NCBI GenBank assembly: GCA_039024555.1
Contig: JBCCQQ010000014.1
Location: forward strand, 40,065-104,064
Direction: 5' to 3'
DNA from: Cyanobacteria bacterium P01_D01_bin.156
Lineage (GTDB): Bacteria; Cyanobacteriota; Cyanobacteriia; Phormidesmidales; Phormidesmidaceae
DNA: 64,000 nt
A program made the translations under genes and the position numbers. How positions within the stretch are numbered: the stretch's first letter is position 1; each line of letters begins with the position of its first letter. Below are positions 2 to 9,648 of the stretch, one piece after another. A model generated the notes under the pieces. That model ran no database searches. It had not been told where the DNA came from and was given only the letters and a program-made list of their open reading frames with translations.

Positions 2-1342
2 GGCCATACAGAAGAAGAACGTGCAGAGATGGCTCGGGAATGCCGGAGATTAATAGGAGTAAGAGGACAAGAGCATGTTCAGCAGTTAGCCAGAACACCT
101 TTACTTTTGACTTTGCTCTGCTCAGTTTATGAGAAAAATCTTAATTTCCCAAAAAATAAATCGCTTCTGATTTCCCGTGCACTGTCTGTGGTTATGCAGG
201 ATTGGGTGAAGGGCAGATCTGTTGAGTATTCTCAGGAGCATAAGTTTTTAGATCCAGACCTTCAGGAGGATTTGCTGTCGGATATCGCTTATTCCCAATT
301 TGAAGAAGGCAATATTGTTTTTTATCGAAACAACATACTGGAAGTCTTTTTGGAAGGTATTGAAGGTAATCGAAATGCTTCAAAGTCTCTAAATGGGGAA
401 TCGGTTTTACAGATTACAGAGGTCCAGCAAGGCATTCTTGTTAAGCTATATCCAAAGATTTATTCCTTTTCTCATTTTACATTACAAGAGTATTTTGTTG
501 CGCGGTACATCGTTGACAATGAAGAGTTGAATGAACTTATCTCATCGTATCTTTTTGTGGAGAGATGGAGGGAGGTTTTTGTCTTGGCCTCAGGATTAAT
601 AAGAGGGAGGAAAAATCCTGAGTTTTTTTTGTTTTCTATAAAAGATGAATTGAATAAATACTACGAACAGCATGAGTTAGAGGGCGTAGTTCATTTCTCT
701 AATTCACTTGTTTCTTCCGATCATTCAGATTATCTCTATGCAGGTAAGTTAGCTGCATTCGTATATATCATAAGAACGTTTCTGGCCTTGGCTCGTTTTG
801 AAATTGAATTTGATGCGCTTAAGGATCCCTTGTGTTTAAGAGCTTTACATTTAAGCTCTTCTCTCGGGCTTTTCCCAAATCCTGATGATTTTGTTGCTTT
901 TGGGTTTATATTAGATGCCTTGTTTCATTTTGCCATTCTTAAGAGCGATTTACCTTCCATGAAGGGAGTAAGACTCCGTGGTACTTCTTATAGGGTTAAT
1001 GCTACATGTGAAAATGCATTTAAGAGGATGGAGTATTTGGAAGAGATAGGAATTTTTAATCCGCGGAGCATCTTGAATATAAAAAAAATAATGCAGCATT
1101 ATGGAGATGAAAACTTTCCTGTACCTCCAGACGAGAATAGCAAAAAGAAGCTTATTTATGAAATCTTAAGTTTATATCTCAAGGCTTTAGGCATAAATAA
1201 ATCGGTGTTAAAGATAGTGGCTATAAAGAATGACTCTTTAGGTGCCTTCTTCTATGGAACAGACTTGCTTGTATGTTGTATGAAAGCATCTGCACGCATT
1301 TCTCCTGATGTATGGGATGAGCTTAGTACTCAGCTCATTTAA
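2..1342 (+). CDS. NACHT (STAND) NTPase, C-terminal part (5' truncated by window edge)
   Basis: Frame is open from position 2. Contains the post-NACHT motifs 'LARTPLLLTLLC' and 'YSFSHFTLQEYFVARYI...WREVF'. Visibly AT-richer than its neighbours. Confidence 0.85.
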   Translation, partial: GHTEEERAEMARECRRLIGVRGQEHVQQLARTPLLLTLLCSVYEKNLNFPKNKSLLISRALSVVMQDWVKGRSVEYSQEHKFLDPDLQEDLLSDIAYSQFEEGNIVFYRNNILEVFLEGIEGNRNASKSLNGESVLQITEVQQGILVKLYPKIYSFSHFTLQEYFVARYIVDNEELNELISSYLFVERWREVFVLASGLIRGRKNPEFFLFSIKDELNKYYEQHELEGVVHFSNSLVSSDHSDYLYAGKLAAFVYIIRTFLALARFEIEFDALKDPLCLRALHLSSSLGLFPNPDDFVAFGFILDALFHFAILKSDLPSMKGVRLRGTSYRVNATCENAFKRMEYLEEIGIFNPRSILNIKKIMQHYGDENFPVPPDENSKKKLIYEILSLYLKALGINKSVLKIVAIKNDSLGAFFYGTDLLVCCMKASARISPDVWDELSTQLI

Positions 1343-1674
1343 ACTGATAGTATTTAGCCTGTCTCTGTCGAATACTTTTTAAGATTACTAATAGTATGGG
1401 CTTTTTGCTTCTTAGTGGGCTTTCCCAAGCTTAATGCAACTAAGGCAATCCGTCTGCAACAGTTTTTTATCTGCCATCATAGGGGAATGGTTTCAACTCT
1501 CTATGTGCCATCCCCATTAATACATTAGTATTTTCGCATTAATACGCACATGAGCTAATCATGTCGCTACTGAACTTTTAACTCATGTTTTGTGAGCTTA
1601 GAGTAAACAGAATGCTGTATTGATGAAGTTCAGTTTCCATGGTCTCCGCATTTACCGCGATCTTCAAGCAGCAT

Positions 1675-3033
1675 CTATTCAGAGGTGTGTGCTAACTCTT
1701 TAGGAAGTCGAGTAGCCCTTAAAATCAACCATGCGGAGCCCATAAACCAAAGGGCTGCAATAATAAACGCCGTTCTCATCACTCCGCCAATATAACCTCT
1801 CAGGTCTTGAACATAGCTCGCGGTATAGGCCAAGGAAATGGCACCTACAAGATTATTGTTAGAGTCTCGAATCGGCGCGTAGATGTAGTAAAACCAATCA
1901 TCAAAGACATTATTAAAACGGCGCTGAGACCTTGTAATCTCAGTTTGGAGACCATCTAGCTGTGCTTGACCAGAGGCATCAACCACCTGCCGAAAGGCAT
2001 AGCCTGCGCCTGGTTTTAAATCTCGAGCAATGTCCCCGATAATTTCTATCTGGCGAGGATTTTGGGAGCGGATGTAGGTTTCAGGGTAAGCATCGGGCAC
2101 GAGTACATGAATTGTGTTGAGCCACTGCTGATGCTTTTGATAAAGAGGGTTGTTTTGGTAGTAAGCGGCATTGTTTGGCGGAAACTGTGCCAGCTTGGCA
2201 AATTCATCCCCATCAATCCCCTGGACAGCGGTATTTAAGGTGGTTGCCATGTCCGCAGCGATCTCTCTTCTCACATGACCACTGAGGGATAAATCGATGG
2301 CCAGGAGCCCCAAACTAATAAAGATTAAGTTAGCGATGACCGTTGTTAGAACCACCAGATACTTGGCTTTTTGACGCGATCGCACAATCGCCTCATTGGC
2401 ATCCAAGCTTGCCCCAACATAGTCCGCATGAACGTCTGTCGGTCTTGGATCCTTATTGACTCCCTGGGTCAGCCATTGTCCGGCTTCTTTTAGATCGCGG
2501 CCCCGCAGTAAGTAGCTAGCATCGCGATGCTTAGTGTCCCATTCCAAGGCCCGTACCAACAGTCGAGTGTGGGTAGAAACATGGTCTAAATCTGTATCTA
2601 ACGCCTCTAAGAGGTCTTGAAATGCCGTTTTAAGGTTGTCGGTTTCTCGAAAGAATAACCAGTTATGTCGTGAGATTGACGAATGTACTTGCTGTGGATC
2701 AAACCCCTCTCGTCGAATAATGGGAAGAAACCGTTTATTGCACTTAGTAGCATACTCAATCTCATCGAGACACACCTTAGATGCAATGGAATCCGGAGTA
2801 ACAACAAAAAGAAATGTGTCTGCGGACTCAATACCCCGTTTAATAGAGTTCCACCAATCTTCCCCTTTGCGGATATCATCCCAGTCGATCCAAGGGTCAC
2901 GACCGATCTTACGAAATGCTTGCTCTAGAATTTCCACAAACGCTTTATCCCTACGGGAATAAGAGATAAAGACATCGTTAGTGCGGCTGGACTGTTGCTT
3001 TGGGGCCTCGGCTGAAGAGGGTTGGGAAGACAT
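1675..3033 (-). CDS. TIR-domain membrane protein (TIR - helical linker - TM - extracytoplasmic domain - TM)
   Basis: N-terminal 'DVFISYSRRD...PWIDWDDI...SKVCLDEIEYA' is TIR_2-like. Two hydrophobic helices ('YLVVLTTVIANLIFISLGLLAI', 'AFIIAALWFMGSAWLIL') flank a ~170-aa domain. Confidence 0.85.
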   Translation of the reverse strand: MSSQPSSAEAPKQQSSRTNDVFISYSRRDKAFVEILEQAFRKIGRDPWIDWDDIRKGEDWWNSIKRGIESADTFLFVVTPDSIASKVCLDEIEYATKCNKRFLPIIRREGFDPQQVHSSISRHNWLFFRETDNLKTAFQDLLEALDTDLDHVSTHTRLLVRALEWDTKHRDASYLLRGRDLKEAGQWLTQGVNKDPRPTDVHADYVGASLDANEAIVRSRQKAKYLVVLTTVIANLIFISLGLLAIDLSLSGHVRREIAADMATTLNTAVQGIDGDEFAKLAQFPPNNAAYYQNNPLYQKHQQWLNTIHVLVPDAYPETYIRSQNPRQIEIIGDIARDLKPGAGYAFRQVVDASGQAQLDGLQTEITRSQRRFNNVFDDWFYYIYAPIRDSNNNLVGAISLAYTASYVQDLRGYIGGVMRTAFIIAALWFMGSAWLILRATRLPKELAHTSE

Positions 3034-3054
3034 AATCCATTTTCGCAGATACAG

Positions 3055-3933
3055 TTATCGTCTAGAGGGGCGACCTAATAACAACTTAGTGATAGCACTC
3101 CGCGCACTTGCTGGTCGAGGACGATTCAGCAACCAGCGTAAGGGCGGAAAGGCAATTTCGTCCGGCAGCAAGATAGCAATAAATTCGAAGGGAAGTAACA
3201 AGTATGTAGTGTTACTCTCCTGTTGGTCCGTAATGTAGCGAATACCTAAACGCAGCTGCAAACTGTAGGCTAAAGCCTGACTATCCATATCCATTAAAGG
3301 ACTCGATAAGGACGCAATCACATCGCCCATATCCACCAGGGGCATACCTGGCTGTAAGGTGCCGCTATTGGGATCCAAACTTAAACAGCCCTCTCCAGTG
3401 ACGCTCGTACCAAAACTTTCGCCAGGGTTGACCACGCTAAATATTTGAGATCGCGATAGATCCCCCGCAAAGGGAACACCTGCCCGAAACACTCGCTGAG
3501 TTTGACGAGATTCATCGGTGGTAATGGAGCTATTGTCCCAGTCGATATACACTTGGGCATCTTCTGTGCCATTGTCAACAGACACACTTAAACCCGGTAG
3601 AGCCATGTTTCGGCTCATATTGCCCATGGGTCCAACGGTAACCTTAACCTTATATATCTGTTTTGGATCGTAGGGAGAGGCGACCTTGAGCGATAGATAA
3701 GGGGGGCGCTTCAGCCCCCGAAACTCAAGTTGTTCCACAGCAGCTGTAACTTTAGGTTGAGATGGGGATGACTGACGCTCTAACTGTTGATTGGTTTGTC
3801 CCTCTAAAAACTCACGATCCAGCTCCACCCGGACCTTATCTTCCAAGTTACTTTCTACCGCTAGGGCCATTTGGTAGAGCACATAGATCACTACCAAAAA
3901 GTAGATAGTCAAAATTAGAACGTCATTACCCAT
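3055..3933 (-). CDS. Hypothetical membrane-anchored protein
   Basis: Long ORF. Likely ATG at 3933 (MGNDVLILTIYFLVVIYVLYQM) gives an N-terminal TM helix. Confidence 0.7.
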   Translation of the reverse strand: MGNDVLILTIYFLVVIYVLYQMALAVESNLEDKVRVELDREFLEGQTNQQLERQSSPSQPKVTAAVEQLEFRGLKRPPYLSLKVASPYDPKQIYKVKVTVGPMGNMSRNMALPGLSVSVDNGTEDAQVYIDWDNSSITTDESRQTQRVFRAGVPFAGDLSRSQIFSVVNPGESFGTSVTGEGCLSLDPNSGTLQPGMPLVDMGDVIASLSSPLMDMDSQALAYSLQLRLGIRYITDQQESNTTYLLLPFEFIAILLPDEIAFPPLRWLLNRPRPASARSAITKLLLGRPSRR

Positions 3934-4029
3934 GGTGTGACCTATCCACAGCCCCGTCGATATACTACTGATGACGCCAGGTGGCGCACCTTTGGCAGGA
4001 TCGTCAATACTGACGTACCCCAAAGGTGC

Positions 4030-5520
4030 CTATAGATTACACCGATTTTTAGAAAGTGTGCCCTGGATTGGGGGATTTGATATTGCTGTGGGCGTCGAGG
4101 CAGGATTTACCTGGGTTTTCCAATACTTTTCTAAATTGCGGGCCACCTGGTTGGACAGTAGTAGCAGCCCCAGCATGTTGGGAATACCCAGGGCAAACAC
4201 AAGGATGTCGCTAAAGCGAATGACCGTATTTAGACTAATGGCTGTGCCTGCAAAACAACCGGTAATGTAAAGCAGTTTATAGAGAAGCAAACCGCGATCG
4301 CGAAGTAAATAGCGCCAGCAGGCTTCACCGTAGTAAAAACACGAAATAATTGTCGAAAAACTAAATAGACCGACAATAATCGCCAGGCCCCATTCCATCA
4401 TGGGCACTTCCACTGCAAAGGCACGGGTGGTCAGTTCGATACCATTGACCATCCCGCCCGGTTCGTAAACTCCCGTCAGCAAACAAACCAGAGCCGTTAG
4501 ATTACAAACAATCACCGTATCGATCAGGGGTTCCACCATGGCAACAATCCCTTCTCGCACTGGCTCAGAATTTTTAGTGGCCGCGTGGGCAATGGCGGCG
4601 GCTCCGGTGCCAGCACCGTTGGAAAAGAATCCCCGCTGCAGCCCCTGCATCATCACCCCGATAATGCCCCCTTCAATGGCAACCGGATGCCAGGCCGAGT
4701 GCCAGACCAGACCGCCTACGTCGGGAATGTCGCCCAGGTGATGAAAAATAATCCACAGGGCTGCGGCAAGATATAGGCCCACCATAGTAGGCACAATGGT
4801 GGAGGCCACCTGGGCAATCCGCTGCAGCCCTCCGATAATCACAGCCGCCACCACCAGAGATAGGCCCAGACCGTACACTCGCGGATCGCTCAACCAGTCC
4901 CAGTGCATCCGTTCTGCTAAAGCAGCGACCGCTATGCCCGACTGATTCGCTTGAAACATATTGCCGCCACTTAGGGCACCCACCATACTCAGCATGGCAA
5001 AGGTAACGGCCAGCAACTGCCCCATGGGTTTCAGGCCGCGCTCCGCTAACCCTTGACTCAAATAGTACATAGGGCCACCAAACACATGACCGCCTTGGAC
5101 AACGCGGTACTCTTGGGCCAAGGTACATTCGGTGAATTTGGTGGTCATACCCAACAGCCCGGCCAGGGTCATCCAGAGGACTGCACCGGGTCCACCGATT
5201 TGGAGTGCGATCGCAACACCCGCAATGTTGCCTAACCCCACCGTTGCCGACATGGCCGTCGCTAATGCTTGAAAGTGGCTAACTTCCCCTTGATCATCTG
5301 GGTCATCATAGGCACCCCGGACCACTTTGAGACTGTGCGCCAACCCTCGCAGGTTGATAAACCCCATACGCAGCGTCAGATATATGGAGCCGCCCACCAG
5401 CCAGAGCACAATTAAGGGCATGCCCCAAAGTTTAAAAAACAGGCTACGCTCCAGCAGCGTCACCAGCATTTCAAAGCTCTGGTCAAGGTTTGTCAGCAGT
5501 TGATTCAATGCCACCATCAC
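4030..5520 (-). CDS. Alanine/glycine:cation symporter (AGCS family)
   Basis: Motifs 'SHFQALATAMSATVGLGNIAGVA', 'GGPGAVLWM' and 'GGPMYY'; many TM helices. Confidence 0.95.
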   Translation of the reverse strand: MMVALNQLLTNLDQSFEMLVTLLERSLFFKLWGMPLIVLWLVGGSIYLTLRMGFINLRGLAHSLKVVRGAYDDPDDQGEVSHFQALATAMSATVGLGNIAGVAIALQIGGPGAVLWMTLAGLLGMTTKFTECTLAQEYRVVQGGHVFGGPMYYLSQGLAERGLKPMGQLLAVTFAMLSMVGALSGGNMFQANQSGIAVAALAERMHWDWLSDPRVYGLGLSLVVAAVIIGGLQRIAQVASTIVPTMVGLYLAAALWIIFHHLGDIPDVGGLVWHSAWHPVAIEGGIIGVMMQGLQRGFFSNGAGTGAAAIAHAATKNSEPVREGIVAMVEPLIDTVIVCNLTALVCLLTGVYEPGGMVNGIELTTRAFAVEVPMMEWGLAIIVGLFSFSTIISCFYYGEACWRYLLRDRGLLLYKLLYITGCFAGTAISLNTVIRFSDILVFALGIPNMLGLLLLSNQVARNLEKYWKTQVNPASTPTAISNPPIQGTLSKNRCNL

Positions 5521-5674
5521 CCCTGCAAACCTCGATAACCGTGTTTAAAGCAATGAGTTAATCGTGGAGGCATTGAGGTGAGTTAATGAGATTAACAAGG
5601 TGTTTTTACTATTGTAAATGCATGTAAACGTAGATTGCGTAGCGATAGCCCACGCCGGGTTAAAAACCTAGCGC

Positions 5675-6631
5675 TCATAAATCAGAAATCACCTTCACCT
5701 GCCCATACAGCCGTTCCATTTCTGGCACGTTTACCCCCAGCTGCTTAGCAGCCCGCACTGGATTACCCAAAATCGCTTCTACCTCCAGCGGGCGGCCTTC
5801 ATCAAAATCAATTTTCATACTGGTACGATAGGGCTTCATGCGGACCGTTGCCCCCATCATCTCCGTCGCAAAACTCATGGGAATTGCCCGCTCTGCCCCC
5901 GCCGCCGCATCCAGGCTGGTCGCCCAAGTATTGCCAGTGGTGATCACCTCGGTCATCAGGGTATAAATTTTCTGTTTTATCGCCGCATCTGCCATCAATT
6001 CATCGGTTGTTGCATTCAAAGCCACCGATAGTCCGTTGTAGGGCACATTCCACACCAGCTTGCGCCAGCGAGTCATAAACAAATCATCGGTGACTAAAAT
6101 GGGAATTTTTGCATTGCGCAGATCATCAACGATGGCTTCCATGGCTGGGGTGAGCGTTCGTTTTTGATTCGTGACGCTGTAAGCCCCCAGCTGAATTTTG
6201 CCGTAGTCCAAATGTCGGATATGTCCTGGTCCTACTTTATTCGAACAAACAAAGCACAGTCCTCCCATAATCTGTTCCGGTGACACCAGCTGGAGAATAT
6301 CTGATTCAATATCCAGCCCGTTTTGTAAGACCAGAACAACAGCATTCTCTTTTAAGGGAGGTAACAGTTTTGAGAGATGGTAATTTTGAGTTGTCTTTAA
6401 AGCGATAACAACGACATCTGCGATTGGTATATTTTCTGGATTGTTATAGGCATTCACCTGGGGCAAAAGGAGATCGCCATCTATCGACTCTACGGTTAGG
6501 CCATGGTGTTTTACATGATCGTAGTCGCTACGCAATAGAAAATGTACGTCACATCCACTCTGCTGCAGTCGTGCTCCGTAGTAACCACCGATGGCACCGG
6601 TACCAATAATGGCGTAACGTTTAGTCGACAT
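5675..6631 (-). CDS. panE: 2-dehydropantoate 2-reductase (ketopantoate reductase)
   Basis: Rossmann 'IIGTGAIGGYYG', plus 'LQNGL', 'WRKLVWN' and 'TSMKIDF..GRPLEVEAI'. Likely ATG at 6631. Confidence 0.9.
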   Translation of the reverse strand: MSTKRYAIIGTGAIGGYYGARLQQSGCDVHFLLRSDYDHVKHHGLTVESIDGDLLLPQVNAYNNPENIPIADVVVIALKTTQNYHLSKLLPPLKENAVVLVLQNGLDIESDILQLVSPEQIMGGLCFVCSNKVGPGHIRHLDYGKIQLGAYSVTNQKRTLTPAMEAIVDDLRNAKIPILVTDDLFMTRWRKLVWNVPYNGLSVALNATTDELMADAAIKQKIYTLMTEVITTGNTWATSLDAAAGAERAIPMSFATEMMGATVRMKPYRTSMKIDFDEGRPLEVEAILGNPVRAAKQLGVNVPEMERLYGQVKVISDL

Positions 6632-9045: not shown

Positions 9046-9648
9046 CTATGACCAAATGCGCTGTAGGTCCAAAATAAATCCAGGTAAGGTATCTTCCCCT
9101 GATAGTGTTTTTGGATCGTCTAAAACTTCTCTTTCCCGCCCGGATCGATACACTTCCACCTGTTTATCCTTGGGATTAATCAGCCATGCCAAGCTCACCC
9201 CATTGTCCATGTATTCCTGCATTTTATTTTGCAGCTTGGGGAGACTATCGGATGGGGAGCGTAACTCAATGACAAAATCAGGACAGAGGGGAATAAAGCC
9301 TTGGCGCTGTTCCGGCTTCAGGGCTTGCCAACGTTCTGTCTGAATCCAGGACACATCGGGGGAGCGGTCTGCGCCATTGGGCAATTGAAACCCCGTTGAG
9401 GAATCAAATGGAATGCCATGGCCCCCTTGTTCTTCGATCCATTTGACCAAGAAGTAGGCGATTTTAATATTGCGATGTCCGGTTTCTCCGCCAGTGGGTG
9501 GATTCACAATTAGCTCTCCTGCTGCGGACCGTTCAATTCTTAAGTCTCGATTGGCCAGGGCAATGGTTTCAAACTGCTGCTGATCTACCCGCAGGGTCAG
9601 GTCCAACGGAAATTCTAAAGCAAGTGTCTGGGGCGATACCTGGGACAT
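9046..9648 (-). CDS. Uma2/DUF820 family putative endonuclease
   Basis: Motifs 'FDSSTGFQLPNGADRSPDVSWI', 'LCPDFVIELRSPSD' and 'KMQEYMDNG'. Confidence 0.95.
   Translation of the reverse strand: MSQVSPQTLALEFPLDLTLRVDQQQFETIALANRDLRIERSAAGELIVNPPTGGETGHRNIKIAYFLVKWIEEQGGHGIPFDSSTGFQLPNGADRSPDVSWIQTERWQALKPEQRQGFIPLCPDFVIELRSPSDSLPKLQNKMQEYMDNGVSLAWLINPKDKQVEVYRSGREREVLDDPKTLSGEDTLPGFILDLQRIWS

Follow-up and report, generated by a model that had tools for sequence, protein, structure and literature searches.

The stretch of DNA analysed here (the window, 64,000 nucleotides in length) comes from Cyanobacteria bacterium P01_D01_bin.156, a member of the Phormidesmidaceae (GenBank assembly GCA_039024555.1, contig JBCCQQ010000014.1, positions 40,065 to 104,064 of the forward strand), whose genome is represented by a 6.6-Mb assembly of 149 contigs that is 99% complete. 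At positions 1675-3033 the minus strand of the window carries an intact open reading frame (ORF), listed with an ATG start and no internal stop codons, for a protein of 452 amino acids. In this product, to which all residue numbers refer, a TIR domain is followed by a linker, a first transmembrane segment (TM1), a Cache-like domain, a second transmembrane segment (TM2) and a short tail, a layout borne by full-length homologues and by an AlphaFold model with a mean predicted local distance difference test score (pLDDT) of 89.3. Both halves of the protein are of known kinds, and its family is already present in databases as unnamed 'TIR domain-containing proteins', once under the label 'histidine kinase'. 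The wiring of an outside sensor, through TM1, to a TIR domain at the N-terminus appears to be undescribed.

The TIR domain spans residues 20-145 (2599-2976, minus strand, as for all parts of the gene) and is predicted to lie in the cytoplasm. It is delimited in concert by Pfam, structural comparison with VIA-align and Foldseek, and the homologue alignment. The TIR_2 profile (PF13676) matches residues 21-142 over its entire length (positions 1-122 of 122), with an E-value of 3.6e-25 and 89.2 bits against a cut-off of 28. Among the 48,161 PDB representatives of the VIA-align database, the SARM1 TIR (9hq0; Z 18.1, root-mean-square deviation 1.8 over 127 residues) and Hydra TRR-2 (Z 18.1) were followed by MyD88, Cat1, ThsB and AbTIR; all 20 top rows cover residues 12-151, and 19 of them are TIR, SEFIR or TIR-fusion structures. 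Foldseek, run on the full model, in which most of the domain has a pLDDT above 90, ranked SPARTA TIR-APAZ first (26-28% identity), and the TIRs of TLR1, TLR2, TLR6 and Hydra TRR-2 were among the sequence or fold matches. The motif VCLDEIEYA (residues 87-95) contains the glutamate at the catalytic position, Glu91 (codon 2761-2763), which, like S82, S85 and C88, is invariant in all 74 aligned full-length homologues, across which the domain shows no length variation. In profile alignments to PDB sequences, the Glu91 column coincides with the glutamate of the 'C/W..E' motif on helix alphaC in Cat1, SPARTA TIR-APAZ, PdTIR and AbTIR, which we take to be the catalytic residue in these proteins, and the family's '...SkvCrdEieyA' falls in line with 'SDWCWDELEQA' of Cat1. 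The domain thus looks catalytically competent, and cleavage of nicotinamide adenine dinucleotide (NAD+) would be its expected activity.

Residues 146-223 (2365-2598) form a conserved helical linker that runs on as one helix into TM1. Its motif, HTRLLVRALEW..SYLLRG.DL..A.QWL, includes the invariant residues H155, R157, R161, E164, W165, L175, L176, G178, L181 and W187, and its core (residues 146-215) belongs to no Pfam family. Its relatives lie among proteins that couple an nSTAND1 NTPase to a membrane sensor. A profile comparison (hhalign) of the family with five such proteins aligned residues 145 to 444 over 296 columns with probability 100 and an E-value of 5e-40, and BLASTP with the whole protein placed residues 130-442 on residues 409-773 of one of them, P0188 (E 9e-21). 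The linker by itself matched P0188 over 44 residues at 36% identity (E 3e-6), on a segment (431-474) that straddles the end of that protein's Pfam nSTAND1 match (63-458); the same pairwise search against a second nSTAND1 protein, P0263, was not significant, though the profile comparison aligned it. The window protein itself has no Pfam match to nSTAND1 (PF20703), NACHT or AAA, and it is only from the linker onward that it aligns with the nSTAND1-sensor proteins.

Two hydrophobic segments stand out in Kyte-Doolittle profiles with 19-residue windows, at residues 225-250 (peak 2.49) and 418-440 (peak 1.78), with lysine and arginine residues preceding the first and following the second. The first corresponds to TM1 (residues 224-250; 2284-2364), which is helical in both models described below; the second is the hydrophobic core of a helix that leads from the end of the sensor into TM2 (residues 405-440; 1714-1821) and is likewise helical in both. 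Since the homologous module of relatives is followed by a cytoplasmic HAMP domain (in 68 HAMP-only proteins and 26 kinases), the sensor should lie outside the cytoplasm, a topology to which hydropathy and homology to HAMP receptors jointly point. The full-length AlphaFold2 model, built on the 74 full-length homologues, shows a flavodoxin-like TIR fold at residues 20-146, three linker helices, a helical cap, a continuous helix (residues 200-271) that joins the cytoplasmic linker, by way of TM1, to the opening helix of the outer domain, a six-stranded sheet with strands within residues 315-404, and a helix (405-440) that returns through the membrane. A second model (pLDDT 86.6) is confined to residues 215-452 and rests on 25 sequences taken from genome loci.

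The approximately 155 residues between the membrane segments (251-404; 1822-2283), a stretch that contains 'YAPIRDSNNNLVGAISL', adopt in both models what these support as a single Cache/PDC sensor fold. In the VIA-align comparison of the full model, residues 237-430 matched periplasmic Cache/PDC sensors, namely the DctB/WalK group (DctBp 2zbb, Z 13.0 over 159 residues; Vibrio cholerae DctB, Z 12.9; WalK 4ywz, Z 12.4 over 138 of 147 residues), as well as Tlp3 (Z 11.9), a formate sCache domain (Z 11.3), TlpB 3ub6 (Z 11.2) and KinD (Z 11.0). Sensors of the Cache/PDC kind, which have a long N-terminal helix, a PAS-like alpha/beta core and a C-terminal helix, make up nearly all of the Foldseek matches listed for the shorter model at E≤1e-4; WalK ranks first (1.5e-7), with the formate sensor (5.7e-6), Tlp3, TlpA, KinD, DcuS, DctB, CitA and CqsR among the others. 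Pfam Cache cut-offs were not reached, either for sCache_3_3 (21.5 against 28.8 bits) or for Cache_3-Cache_2 (18.3 against 27.7), the latter match covering residues 374-415 only; among 25 family members, Cache_3-Cache_2 matched eight, sCache_3_3 six and dCache_1 two, with best E-values from 1.3e-4 to 1.2e-3. A sequence profile of the sensor found nothing significant among PDB sequences (best E 0.033, the PsaJ transmembrane helix; CitA, E 0.94). Given a match by fold short of any Pfam cut-off, the domain is called Cache/PDC-like here on the strength of its fold, without being assigned to any named Pfam Cache family. It may bind a ligand.

Conservation differs between the parts of the protein and is highest in the TIR domain. 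The mean pairwise identity of the 74 homologues is 0.69 in the TIR domain, 0.59 in the linker, 0.44 in TM1, 0.34 in the Cache domain and 0.38 in TM2, and within the sensor a hypervariable stretch (residues 338-372) drops to 0.18 and ranges from 32 to 60 residues in length. The difference between TIR and sensor fits a constrained enzyme joined to a diversifying sensor. Beyond TM2 there remains only a tail of 12 residues, predicted to be cytoplasmic (441-452; 1675-1713 with the stop codon), and the C-terminus reads 'LRATRLPKELAHTSE'. In a hidden Markov model alignment, in which 38 rows extend that far, the end of the window protein ('...WLILRA-TRLPKEL') is in register with '...VSRx-TRPITxL' of HAMP carriers; the Pfam HAMP model begins at this point in those carriers, and the TIR family consensus there is 'ILRATRP'. 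HAMP itself (PF00672) finds no match in the protein at E≤1. The alignment implies that the protein stops about seven residues into the HAMP domain of its relatives, and 'TRLPKEL' is on this comparison a vestige of the first residues of HAMP. The preliminary description of this gene, made from the letters of the sequence, had anticipated much of this layout. The N-terminal TIR with its glutamate, the helical linker, both membrane segments and the short tail are all present as proposed; the domain between the membrane segments is there too, at about 155 instead of the suggested 170 or so residues, and fold comparison agrees with the idea of a Cache-like sensor. Its statement that the protein had been cut at the start of a HAMP domain proved right, because the tail aligns with the first HAMP residues of relatives. 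It did not extend to the nSTAND1-type character of the linker, to the CHASE2 and PF13355 domains that take the sensor's place in sister proteins, or to the lack of a conserved partner gene.

Modelling also supports a receptor-like dimer. The homodimer model scored 0.43 (runs 0.43, 0.44 and 0.38) against 0.00 for the best of three controls, and the mark of 0.42 is reached by 20 of 30 solved same-chain pairs and by one of 23 solved single chains, a calibration that is only rough because our own alignment was used. At least 47% of contacts agreed between runs, with a partner pLDDT of at least 77. The predicted symmetric interface has TM1 (224-257) at its core and includes the first sensor helix (264-272), residues 307-313, TM2 (410-441) and the linker residues 189 and 207, with TM2 packed on TM1 of the other chain.

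The interpretation that we favour, at odds that we would place somewhat short of even, is that the protein is a dimeric receptor gated by a ligand or by the state of the envelope, in which an outside cue, relayed by TM1, drives TIR assembly and NAD+ cleavage, with the protein acting alone. Two chains would dimerise through a four-helix transmembrane bundle, as in histidine kinases and chemoreceptors, and the periplasm-facing Cache-like domain would sense a small molecule or an envelope-derived cue through a binding region that has diversified between lineages. With HAMP and any C-terminal output gone, the signal cannot exit by way of TM2. Hence, it would be passed back via TM1 to the TIR domains at the N-terminus, by the continuous helix of residues 200-271 and the rigid nSTAND1-type linker. 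A change in the orientation of dimers, or their clustering, would then allow the TIRs to assemble, forming a composite active site around Glu91, and NAD+ would be cleaved. Growth arrest or cell death would be the outcome, either as abortive infection or as programmed cell death in a filament. We consider this the most economical mechanism for a protein whose single predicted cytoplasmic domain is hung from TM1 by a long rigid helix and a conserved junction, whose TIR evolves slowest and the variable region of its sensor fastest, and which has no conserved partner.

A profile of residues 215-452 from the 25 loci was compared with 1.84 billion representative sequences and gave 1585 matches (E≤1e-3), of which 269 reach E≤1e-10 and 51 reach E≤1e-30. 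Pfam classes were assigned to the 147 newly listed proteins among the best 150 matches: 68 have HAMP only and are mostly 330-390 residues long, 26 are histidine kinases, many with HAMP, GAF or PAS, two are PAS-GGDEF-EAL proteins and two adenylate/guanylate cyclases, seven carry TIR (one a triple-TIR protein, one a TIR-nSTAND1 protein) and four an nSTAND1 NTPase without TIR; one has a weak sCache match only, and 37 match no family at E≤1e-4. The module occupies the N-terminal part (about residues 25-240) of nearly all carriers of the HAMP, kinase, GGDEF and cyclase classes, where HAMP follows TM2, and the C-terminal part of TIR and nSTAND1 carriers. The two types have the core motifs D276, Y298, W304, L305, P313, Y320, P387, I388 and V396 in common. 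At the level of genomes, the module is found in eight of 41 relatives, where its non-TIR forms are HAMP-HisKA-HATPase, HAMP-only and HAMP-PAS-GGDEF-EAL proteins. HAMP-only carriers of 330-390 residues (e.g. P0123 and P0130-P0133) consist of TM1, sensor, TM2 and HAMP with some 60-100 further residues that match no Pfam family, and one HAMP-only cluster is named from Anaerolinea. A C-terminal TM1-Cache-like-TM2 unit is seen in P0151, P0182, P0188, P0217, P0263 and P0134, a set made up of nSTAND1 NTPases, one of which begins with a TIR, and one protein with three TIRs; in the nSTAND1 proteins the membrane sensor holds the place usual for WD40 or TPR repeats in STAND proteins.

A sensor tree (quick IQ-TREE search, midpoint root for drawing only) was built from 158 rows, namely 133 of the 147 proteins, the window protein and 24 locus sequences, 14 proteins with fewer than 170 aligned residues having been dropped. 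All 25 locus-derived TIR sequences, with two unannotated fragments, form one clade with a Shimodaira-Hasegawa approximate likelihood-ratio (SH-aLRT) support of 100, and this clade is nested within a group of 45 rows (support 94) that is completed by 11 HAMP-only proteins, six kinases and one protein with no family match. We read this as probable derivation of the TIR-Cache family from a HAMP-type receptor, in keeping with the earlier attribution of the sensor to such receptors. The seven other TIR-linked and four nSTAND1-linked modules are placed elsewhere in the tree, and strongly supported branches force at least five changes of TIR label and at least three of nSTAND1 label. The number of joining events is not settled by this, given the many unresolved forks, the long branches of three rows and the lack of a true root. 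We further read the scatter of TIR- and nSTAND1-linked modules over several places among HAMP-type modules as a sign that TIR or nSTAND1 was joined to sensors of this family more than once, which fits repeated capture of the sensor from HAMP receptors.

The TIR-Cache family is well represented beyond the window. In a word-indexed search of 5.8 billion clusters, 435 proteins matched, which puts the architecture well beyond chance, and for about 90 cluster representatives, 435-480 residues long, the match extends over 90% or more of the query (41-68% identity); the full-length clusters that bear names all derive from filamentous cyanobacteria (Leptolyngbya, Halomicronema, Alkalinema, Oculatella-like, Kovacikia, Stenomitos and Crinalium). 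A scan of one genome per species located 46 loci, 24 of which contain full or near-full copies as established by ORF calling and BLASTP, making 25 with the window. Four genomes have two loci each, and the 25 include a tandem pair in a metagenome-assembled Leptolyngbya, where two TIR-Cache genes lie 60 nucleotides apart (L002:8385-11383). Within the genus the distribution is sparse. The sensor profile finds the TIR-Cache gene in one of 22 genomes, a second having the module in a hybrid kinase. Phylum-wide, the full-length profile gave a full-length match in the gene's own genome only, out of 401, a count that is unreliable because at most four candidates were scored per genome and TIR+linker paralogues fill those places. 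The truncation of HAMP and the position of the gene at a synteny break (see below) might be taken to mean that it is a non-functional relic of recombination between a HAMP receptor and a TIR gene. Set against the roughly 90 full-length clusters with intact frames, the 25 intact loci in species-representative genomes, the invariant residues in both halves and the single, fully supported clade, this explanation is exceedingly improbable, and the worry that the architecture might be a singleton can be laid aside.

A subtler doubt concerns the sensor of the window copy. Glycine occupies position 378 in 69 of the 74 homologues and position 393 in 71; the window protein (D378, N393) and its closest homologue, P0002, which is 68% identical, both depart from this, with aspartate or glutamate at the former position and asparagine at the latter. 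The two positions belong to the last hairpins of the sensor (residues 372-404; 1822-1920, minus strand). On the tree, moreover, no branch of the clade is as long as that of the window sensor (1.05; median 0.6). Coupled with the loss of HAMP and of an output domain, and with the existence of sister proteins that have a single membrane segment followed by unrelated domains at the same position, these features could indicate that the former sensor binds nothing and serves only to tether and dimerise a TIR that answers to a cue from the cytoplasm or from the state of the membrane, depolarisation or lipid damage for instance. We give this little credence. The Cache core motifs Y298, W304, P313, Y320, P387 and V396 are kept across the TIR family and are common to HAMP receptors, a mere anchor would not need a folded domain of 155 residues kept for so long, and the glycine replacements, being common to a homologue of 68% identity, have been maintained.

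The genome of the window encodes an extensive set of proteins that begin in the same way. TIR and linker together have 45 matches in it, the best six paralogues being 43-50% identical over residues ~15-248, and Pfam was run on eleven of these proteins. The paralogues include six TIR-linker-WD40 proteins of 959-1060 residues; others have three TIR units followed by WD40 (1395, 1360 and 827 residues) or five such units followed by WD40 (1782 residues), a 489-residue protein has three TIR_2 stretches and no other family, and a 535-residue TIR protein has no other family match. Four TIR-linker-WD40 genes, for products of about 1000 residues each, lie in tandem at G000:C11:64938-77639 (L081), two of them among the eleven proteins run, and further TIR-WD40 or multi-TIR proteins are encoded on contigs C6, C47, C57, C3 and C86. 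A 1493-residue protein (G000:C7:14137-18618; L087) consists of five tandem TIR(+linker) units and a CHASE2 domain, so that a further extracytoplasmic sensor, distinct from the Cache-like one, is attached to N-terminal TIRs in this genome. Other TIR+linker relatives (P0092-P0099, P0093, P0113, P0108, P0110 and P0117) show only one hydrophobic segment, placed where TM1 would be, and then PF13355 (DUF4101), CHAT (PF12770) or an unassigned region of about 150 residues, some in forms of about 400 residues; PF13355 is presumably the ARC6 IMS-like domain. These single-pass sister architectures suggest a wider class of membrane-anchored TIR proteins. Given the nSTAND1 alignment and the TIR+linker paralogues, the linker can be described as the junction piece of a TIR/nSTAND1 module to which varied sensors are attached, and the Cache-like module is one of several membrane-spanning choices after TIR and linker. 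The proposal that a sensor here replaces the customary repeats is a fair description, since paralogues in the same genome carry WD40 after TIR and linker, and the fusion of TIR and linker to WD40 or CHASE2, together with the linker's joining of nSTAND1 to the same sensor, speaks for kinship with conflict systems.

This wealth of paralogues admits an arrangement more akin to Toll signalling proper, in which the TIR of the receptor would be barely catalytic and, once clustered, would seed the assembly of soluble TIR-WD40 and multi-TIR proteins. The 45 TIR+linker matches of the genome, with their six TIR-WD40 proteins, proteins of three to five tandem TIRs and the 5xTIR-CHASE2 protein, would offer it clients, and the TIR is 43-50% identical to those of the best paralogues. 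In an Oculatellaceae genome, a 960-residue TIR-WD40 gene lies 231 nucleotides directly upstream of the TIR-Cache gene (L036:6846-11326), and this adjacency counts in the same direction. Nonetheless, the catalytic glutamate is invariant, and we regard an adaptor role as improbable.

As for the surroundings of the gene in the window, upstream on the contig lie cytochrome oxidase, two DUF2231, TPR, cNMP-kinase and LysE genes. Converging on the TIR gene is a plus-strand gene for a 732-residue NACHT-family STAND NTPase (window 2-1342, starting in G000:C14; L069:9144-11342), with a Pfam NACHT E-value of 1.8e-10, weak nSTAND3 and NCH2 matches, and a G+C content of 0.36-0.39 against 0.45-0.50 nearby; the two genes may constitute a small acquired islet. 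On the other side follow p292, a Na:Ala symporter gene (AgcS) and PanE. The p292 gene (3055-3933, minus strand, about 292 residues; listed as 3055-4023 with 322 codons from a TTG) ends 21 nucleotides upstream of the TIR gene, and its product has a lone hydrophobic segment near the N-terminus and matches no family in Pfam, NCBIfam or PADLOC. This gene was rejected as a partner because it is present, as a single copy, in 21 of the 22 genomes of the genus, only one of which has the TIR gene. In the three same-genus relatives examined, p292 directly follows the symporter gene, and these keep the PanE-AgcS-p292 order with no TIR or NACHT gene next to it, an NYN protein and a phytochrome kinase lying downstream instead. 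Occurrence in one of 22 genomes and loss of the PanE-AgcS-p292 synteny at this very gene mark it as an accessory gene at a synteny break. A scan of 1200-5800 gave eight promoter-like sites against 6.3 expected and 11 terminator-like sites against 4.3 expected, none of the latter falling between p292 and the TIR gene or just after the TIR gene. A conserved operon partner was also rejected, as the window neighbours (p292, the symporter and the NACHT gene among them), Uma2 excepted, have no BLASTP match (E≤1e-5) near the 46 related loci.

Genes of the Uma2 family, putative nucleases, stand directly beside the TIR-Cache gene in four of 24 related loci that represent two pairs of close relatives (L005:9226-9822, L009:8681-9364, L020:8145-8762 and L037:9173-9790), and the window has a copy 6 kb away (9046-9648, minus strand). 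The PADLOC candidate PDC-S03 is this same nuclease family, and a single-sequence tblastn search finds ten Uma2 places in the genome; the adjacency could be due to chance.

When neighbours within 6 kb of the 25 full-length loci were clustered, no family occurred in more than eight loci, the largest consisting of response-regulator domains, and chromate transporters (six loci), LuxR-type and PatA-type regulators, DUF4351, UvrC and the CHASE2-cyclase were likewise confined to subsets. Nineteen of 145 neighbour ORFs, a set from which one more ORF was left out for its size and another because the end of a contig truncates it, match a PADLOC model at E≤1e-10, and the models are mostly generic (cyclase, kinase, AAA, WD40). 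No ThsA model was found among the Pfam-checked neighbour families or the PADLOC matches of these ORFs, and no APAZ/Argonaute, CARF/SAVED or ThsA partner in the PADLOC scan of the window protein or among neighbours at the 25 loci. That no neighbour family recurs at all 25 loci fits direct NAD+ depletion better than a signal dependent on a partner. It bears in particular on the prospect that the protein is a signal-generating receptor whose TIR makes an NAD+-derived messenger (an isomer of cyclic ADP-ribose or a related nucleotide, as made by Thoeris ThsB and plant TIRs) for an effector encoded elsewhere in the genome. The evidence for a competent TIR applies to such a receptor equally, and the dozens of TIR modules in the genome could share a messenger economy. 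Domain-level matches to the PADLOC ThsB models (E 9e-11) and to NCBIfam Thoeris type III ThcB4 (27.6 bits against a cut-off of 220) might also be cited in its favour, but they are weak, cover the core TIR only and fall far below family cut-offs. The same is true of the remaining NCBIfam and PADLOC matches, which are at the level of the TIR (retron-TIR, Aga TIR and SAVED-TIR), while the Pfam ThsB_TIR score (15 bits against 21.2) leaves the protein outside the Thoeris ThsB family. With no ThsA-like or other receiver gene recurring beside the 25 loci, and with NAD+-consuming TIRs as the best fold matches, a messenger function seems to us rather unlikely.

The same neighbourhoods invite a more peaceful explanation. 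Response regulators, transporters and a CHASE2 cyclase are neighbours in several loci, some genomes have two copies of the gene and one a tandem pair, and the sensor family otherwise belongs to ordinary two-component, cyclic di-GMP and cyclase proteins. The protein could, on these grounds, be a physiological chemosensor for a nutrient, population or kin signal, its TIR tuning NAD+ metabolism or filament development, for instance in cells sacrificed at fragmentation. Such a function sits poorly with the patchy, accessory distribution (one of 22 genus genomes), with a TIR and linker common to conflict-type WD40 and nSTAND1 proteins, and with a variable sensor region that diverges fast and with insertions and deletions, and we deem it unlikely.

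The gated, self-sufficient receptor is thus retained as our preferred account of the protein, and several observations tell against it. To our knowledge, signalling through TM1 to an N-terminal output is not a documented route for Cache receptors. The invariant glutamate, taken from the alignment, would also be compatible with production of a signalling nucleotide instead of NAD+ depletion. The sensor of the window protein matches no Pfam Cache model at cut-off, and this copy has lost two nearly invariant sensor glycines. The dimer model passes its mark by a marginal amount and may do so by virtue of its likeness to dimeric sensor kinases and chemoreceptors, since those have been solved, and it leaves the TIR domains outside the confident interface. 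Lastly, a defence-island context is not shown, because PADLOC matches are few and mostly generic and the neighbourhoods are for the most part of a housekeeping or signalling nature.

Comparison with known systems places the protein at a crossroads. It follows the logic of TIR-linker-WD40, multi-TIR and TIR/nSTAND1 proteins, which have the same TIR, linker and pairing of an effector with a variable sensor, and differs from them in that the sensor is a two-pass, predicted extracytoplasmic Cache-like module in place of cytoplasmic repeats, with no NTPase switch. From the Cache/PDC modules of HAMP kinases and chemoreceptors (DctB, WalK/YycG, KinD, DcuS, Tlp3, TlpB) it has the succession of TM1, long helix, alpha/beta PDC core, helix and TM2. 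Unlike these receptors, it lacks HAMP and a C-terminal transmitter, and its output, N-terminal to TM1, is a TIR and not a kinase, a chemotaxis transducer, a cyclase or a GGDEF domain. The TIR fold and the glutamate column are those of SARM1, SPARTA TIR-APAZ, Cat1, AbTIR and Thoeris ThsB, and activation by assembly is the expected mode for NAD+-cleaving TIR effectors; their activators, however, are cytoplasmic (the ratio of nicotinamide mononucleotide to NAD+, a guide-target duplex, cyclic tetra-adenylate, a phage protein), whereas the sensor of the window protein is predicted to face the periplasm. ToxR/CadC-type regulators, PknB-type PASTA kinases and RsgI-type anti-sigma factors have an N-terminal cytoplasmic output and a C-terminal outside sensor joined by a single transmembrane segment. 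As in those proteins, the signal must here travel from the outside domain through the first membrane segment to the N-terminal module, but the folds of output and sensor are different, and the window protein keeps the second membrane segment of a HAMP receptor. Animal Toll-like and interleukin-1 receptors likewise unite, in a single polypeptide, a sensory ectodomain with a membrane-spanning segment and a TIR on the cytoplasmic side. The window protein reverses that order, with its TIR at the N-terminus, is predicted to pass the membrane twice and has a Cache-like ectodomain where they have leucine-rich repeats or immunoglobulin domains, and its glutamate suggests catalysis over pure scaffolding. 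The resemblance is an analogy of design and not orthology.

In the literature, TIR effectors with variable sensors have been described from multicellular bacteria in PMC7159879 (Kaur et al. 2020) and PMC8195603 (Kaur et al. 2021). The word 'Cache' does not occur in either text, and in PMC8195603 CHASE2 with transmembrane helices is mentioned as the variable C-terminal part of another component. PMC10907252 reports periplasm-facing C-type-lectin sensors in STAND systems. Full-text literature searches returned no paper that pairs TIR with a Cache or periplasmic sensor, the architecture possibly standing in the supplements of PMC7159879 or PMC8195603, and only PMC8195603 for CHASE2 together with a TIR domain.

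It is tempting to extend the argument beyond the Cache-bearing proteins, and we do so as a conjecture that is less likely than not to hold. These proteins would be members of a wider, undescribed class of Toll-like design, made up of a catalytic TIR, a junction helix, a membrane span and an interchangeable ectodomain, that lets multicellular cyanobacteria trigger NAD+ collapse and cell suicide from outside. Its ectodomains would comprise the Cache-like domain, CHASE2, the PF13355/ARC6-IMS-like domain and the unassigned regions that follow a membrane segment, and it could be set off by adsorbing phage, by damage to the envelope, or by danger or kin signals that neighbouring cells release. If such a class exists, decisions of immunity or death would be taken before any component of an invader is present in the cytoplasm, or without one, and repeated capture of the sensor would mean that the design is selected for.

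Should the TIR be inactive or the sensor devoid of a ligand, the gene would be an odd domain fusion and no more. In the bacterial TIR effectors known so far, activation starts in the cytoplasm, for example with a phage protein, a nucleic acid or a second messenger, and command of a TIR from outside is a design so far associated with animal Toll and interleukin-1 receptors. If our reading of the TIR-Cache gene is right, NAD+-depleting or TIR-signalling responses would in these bacteria be commanded from the periplasm. The gene would then provide a one-gene system in which to study backward signalling of a Cache domain through TM1, the danger ligands or envelope states of a filamentous cyanobacterium, and the shuffling of sensors between housekeeping signalling, as in HAMP kinases, and conflict systems built on TIR and nSTAND1.

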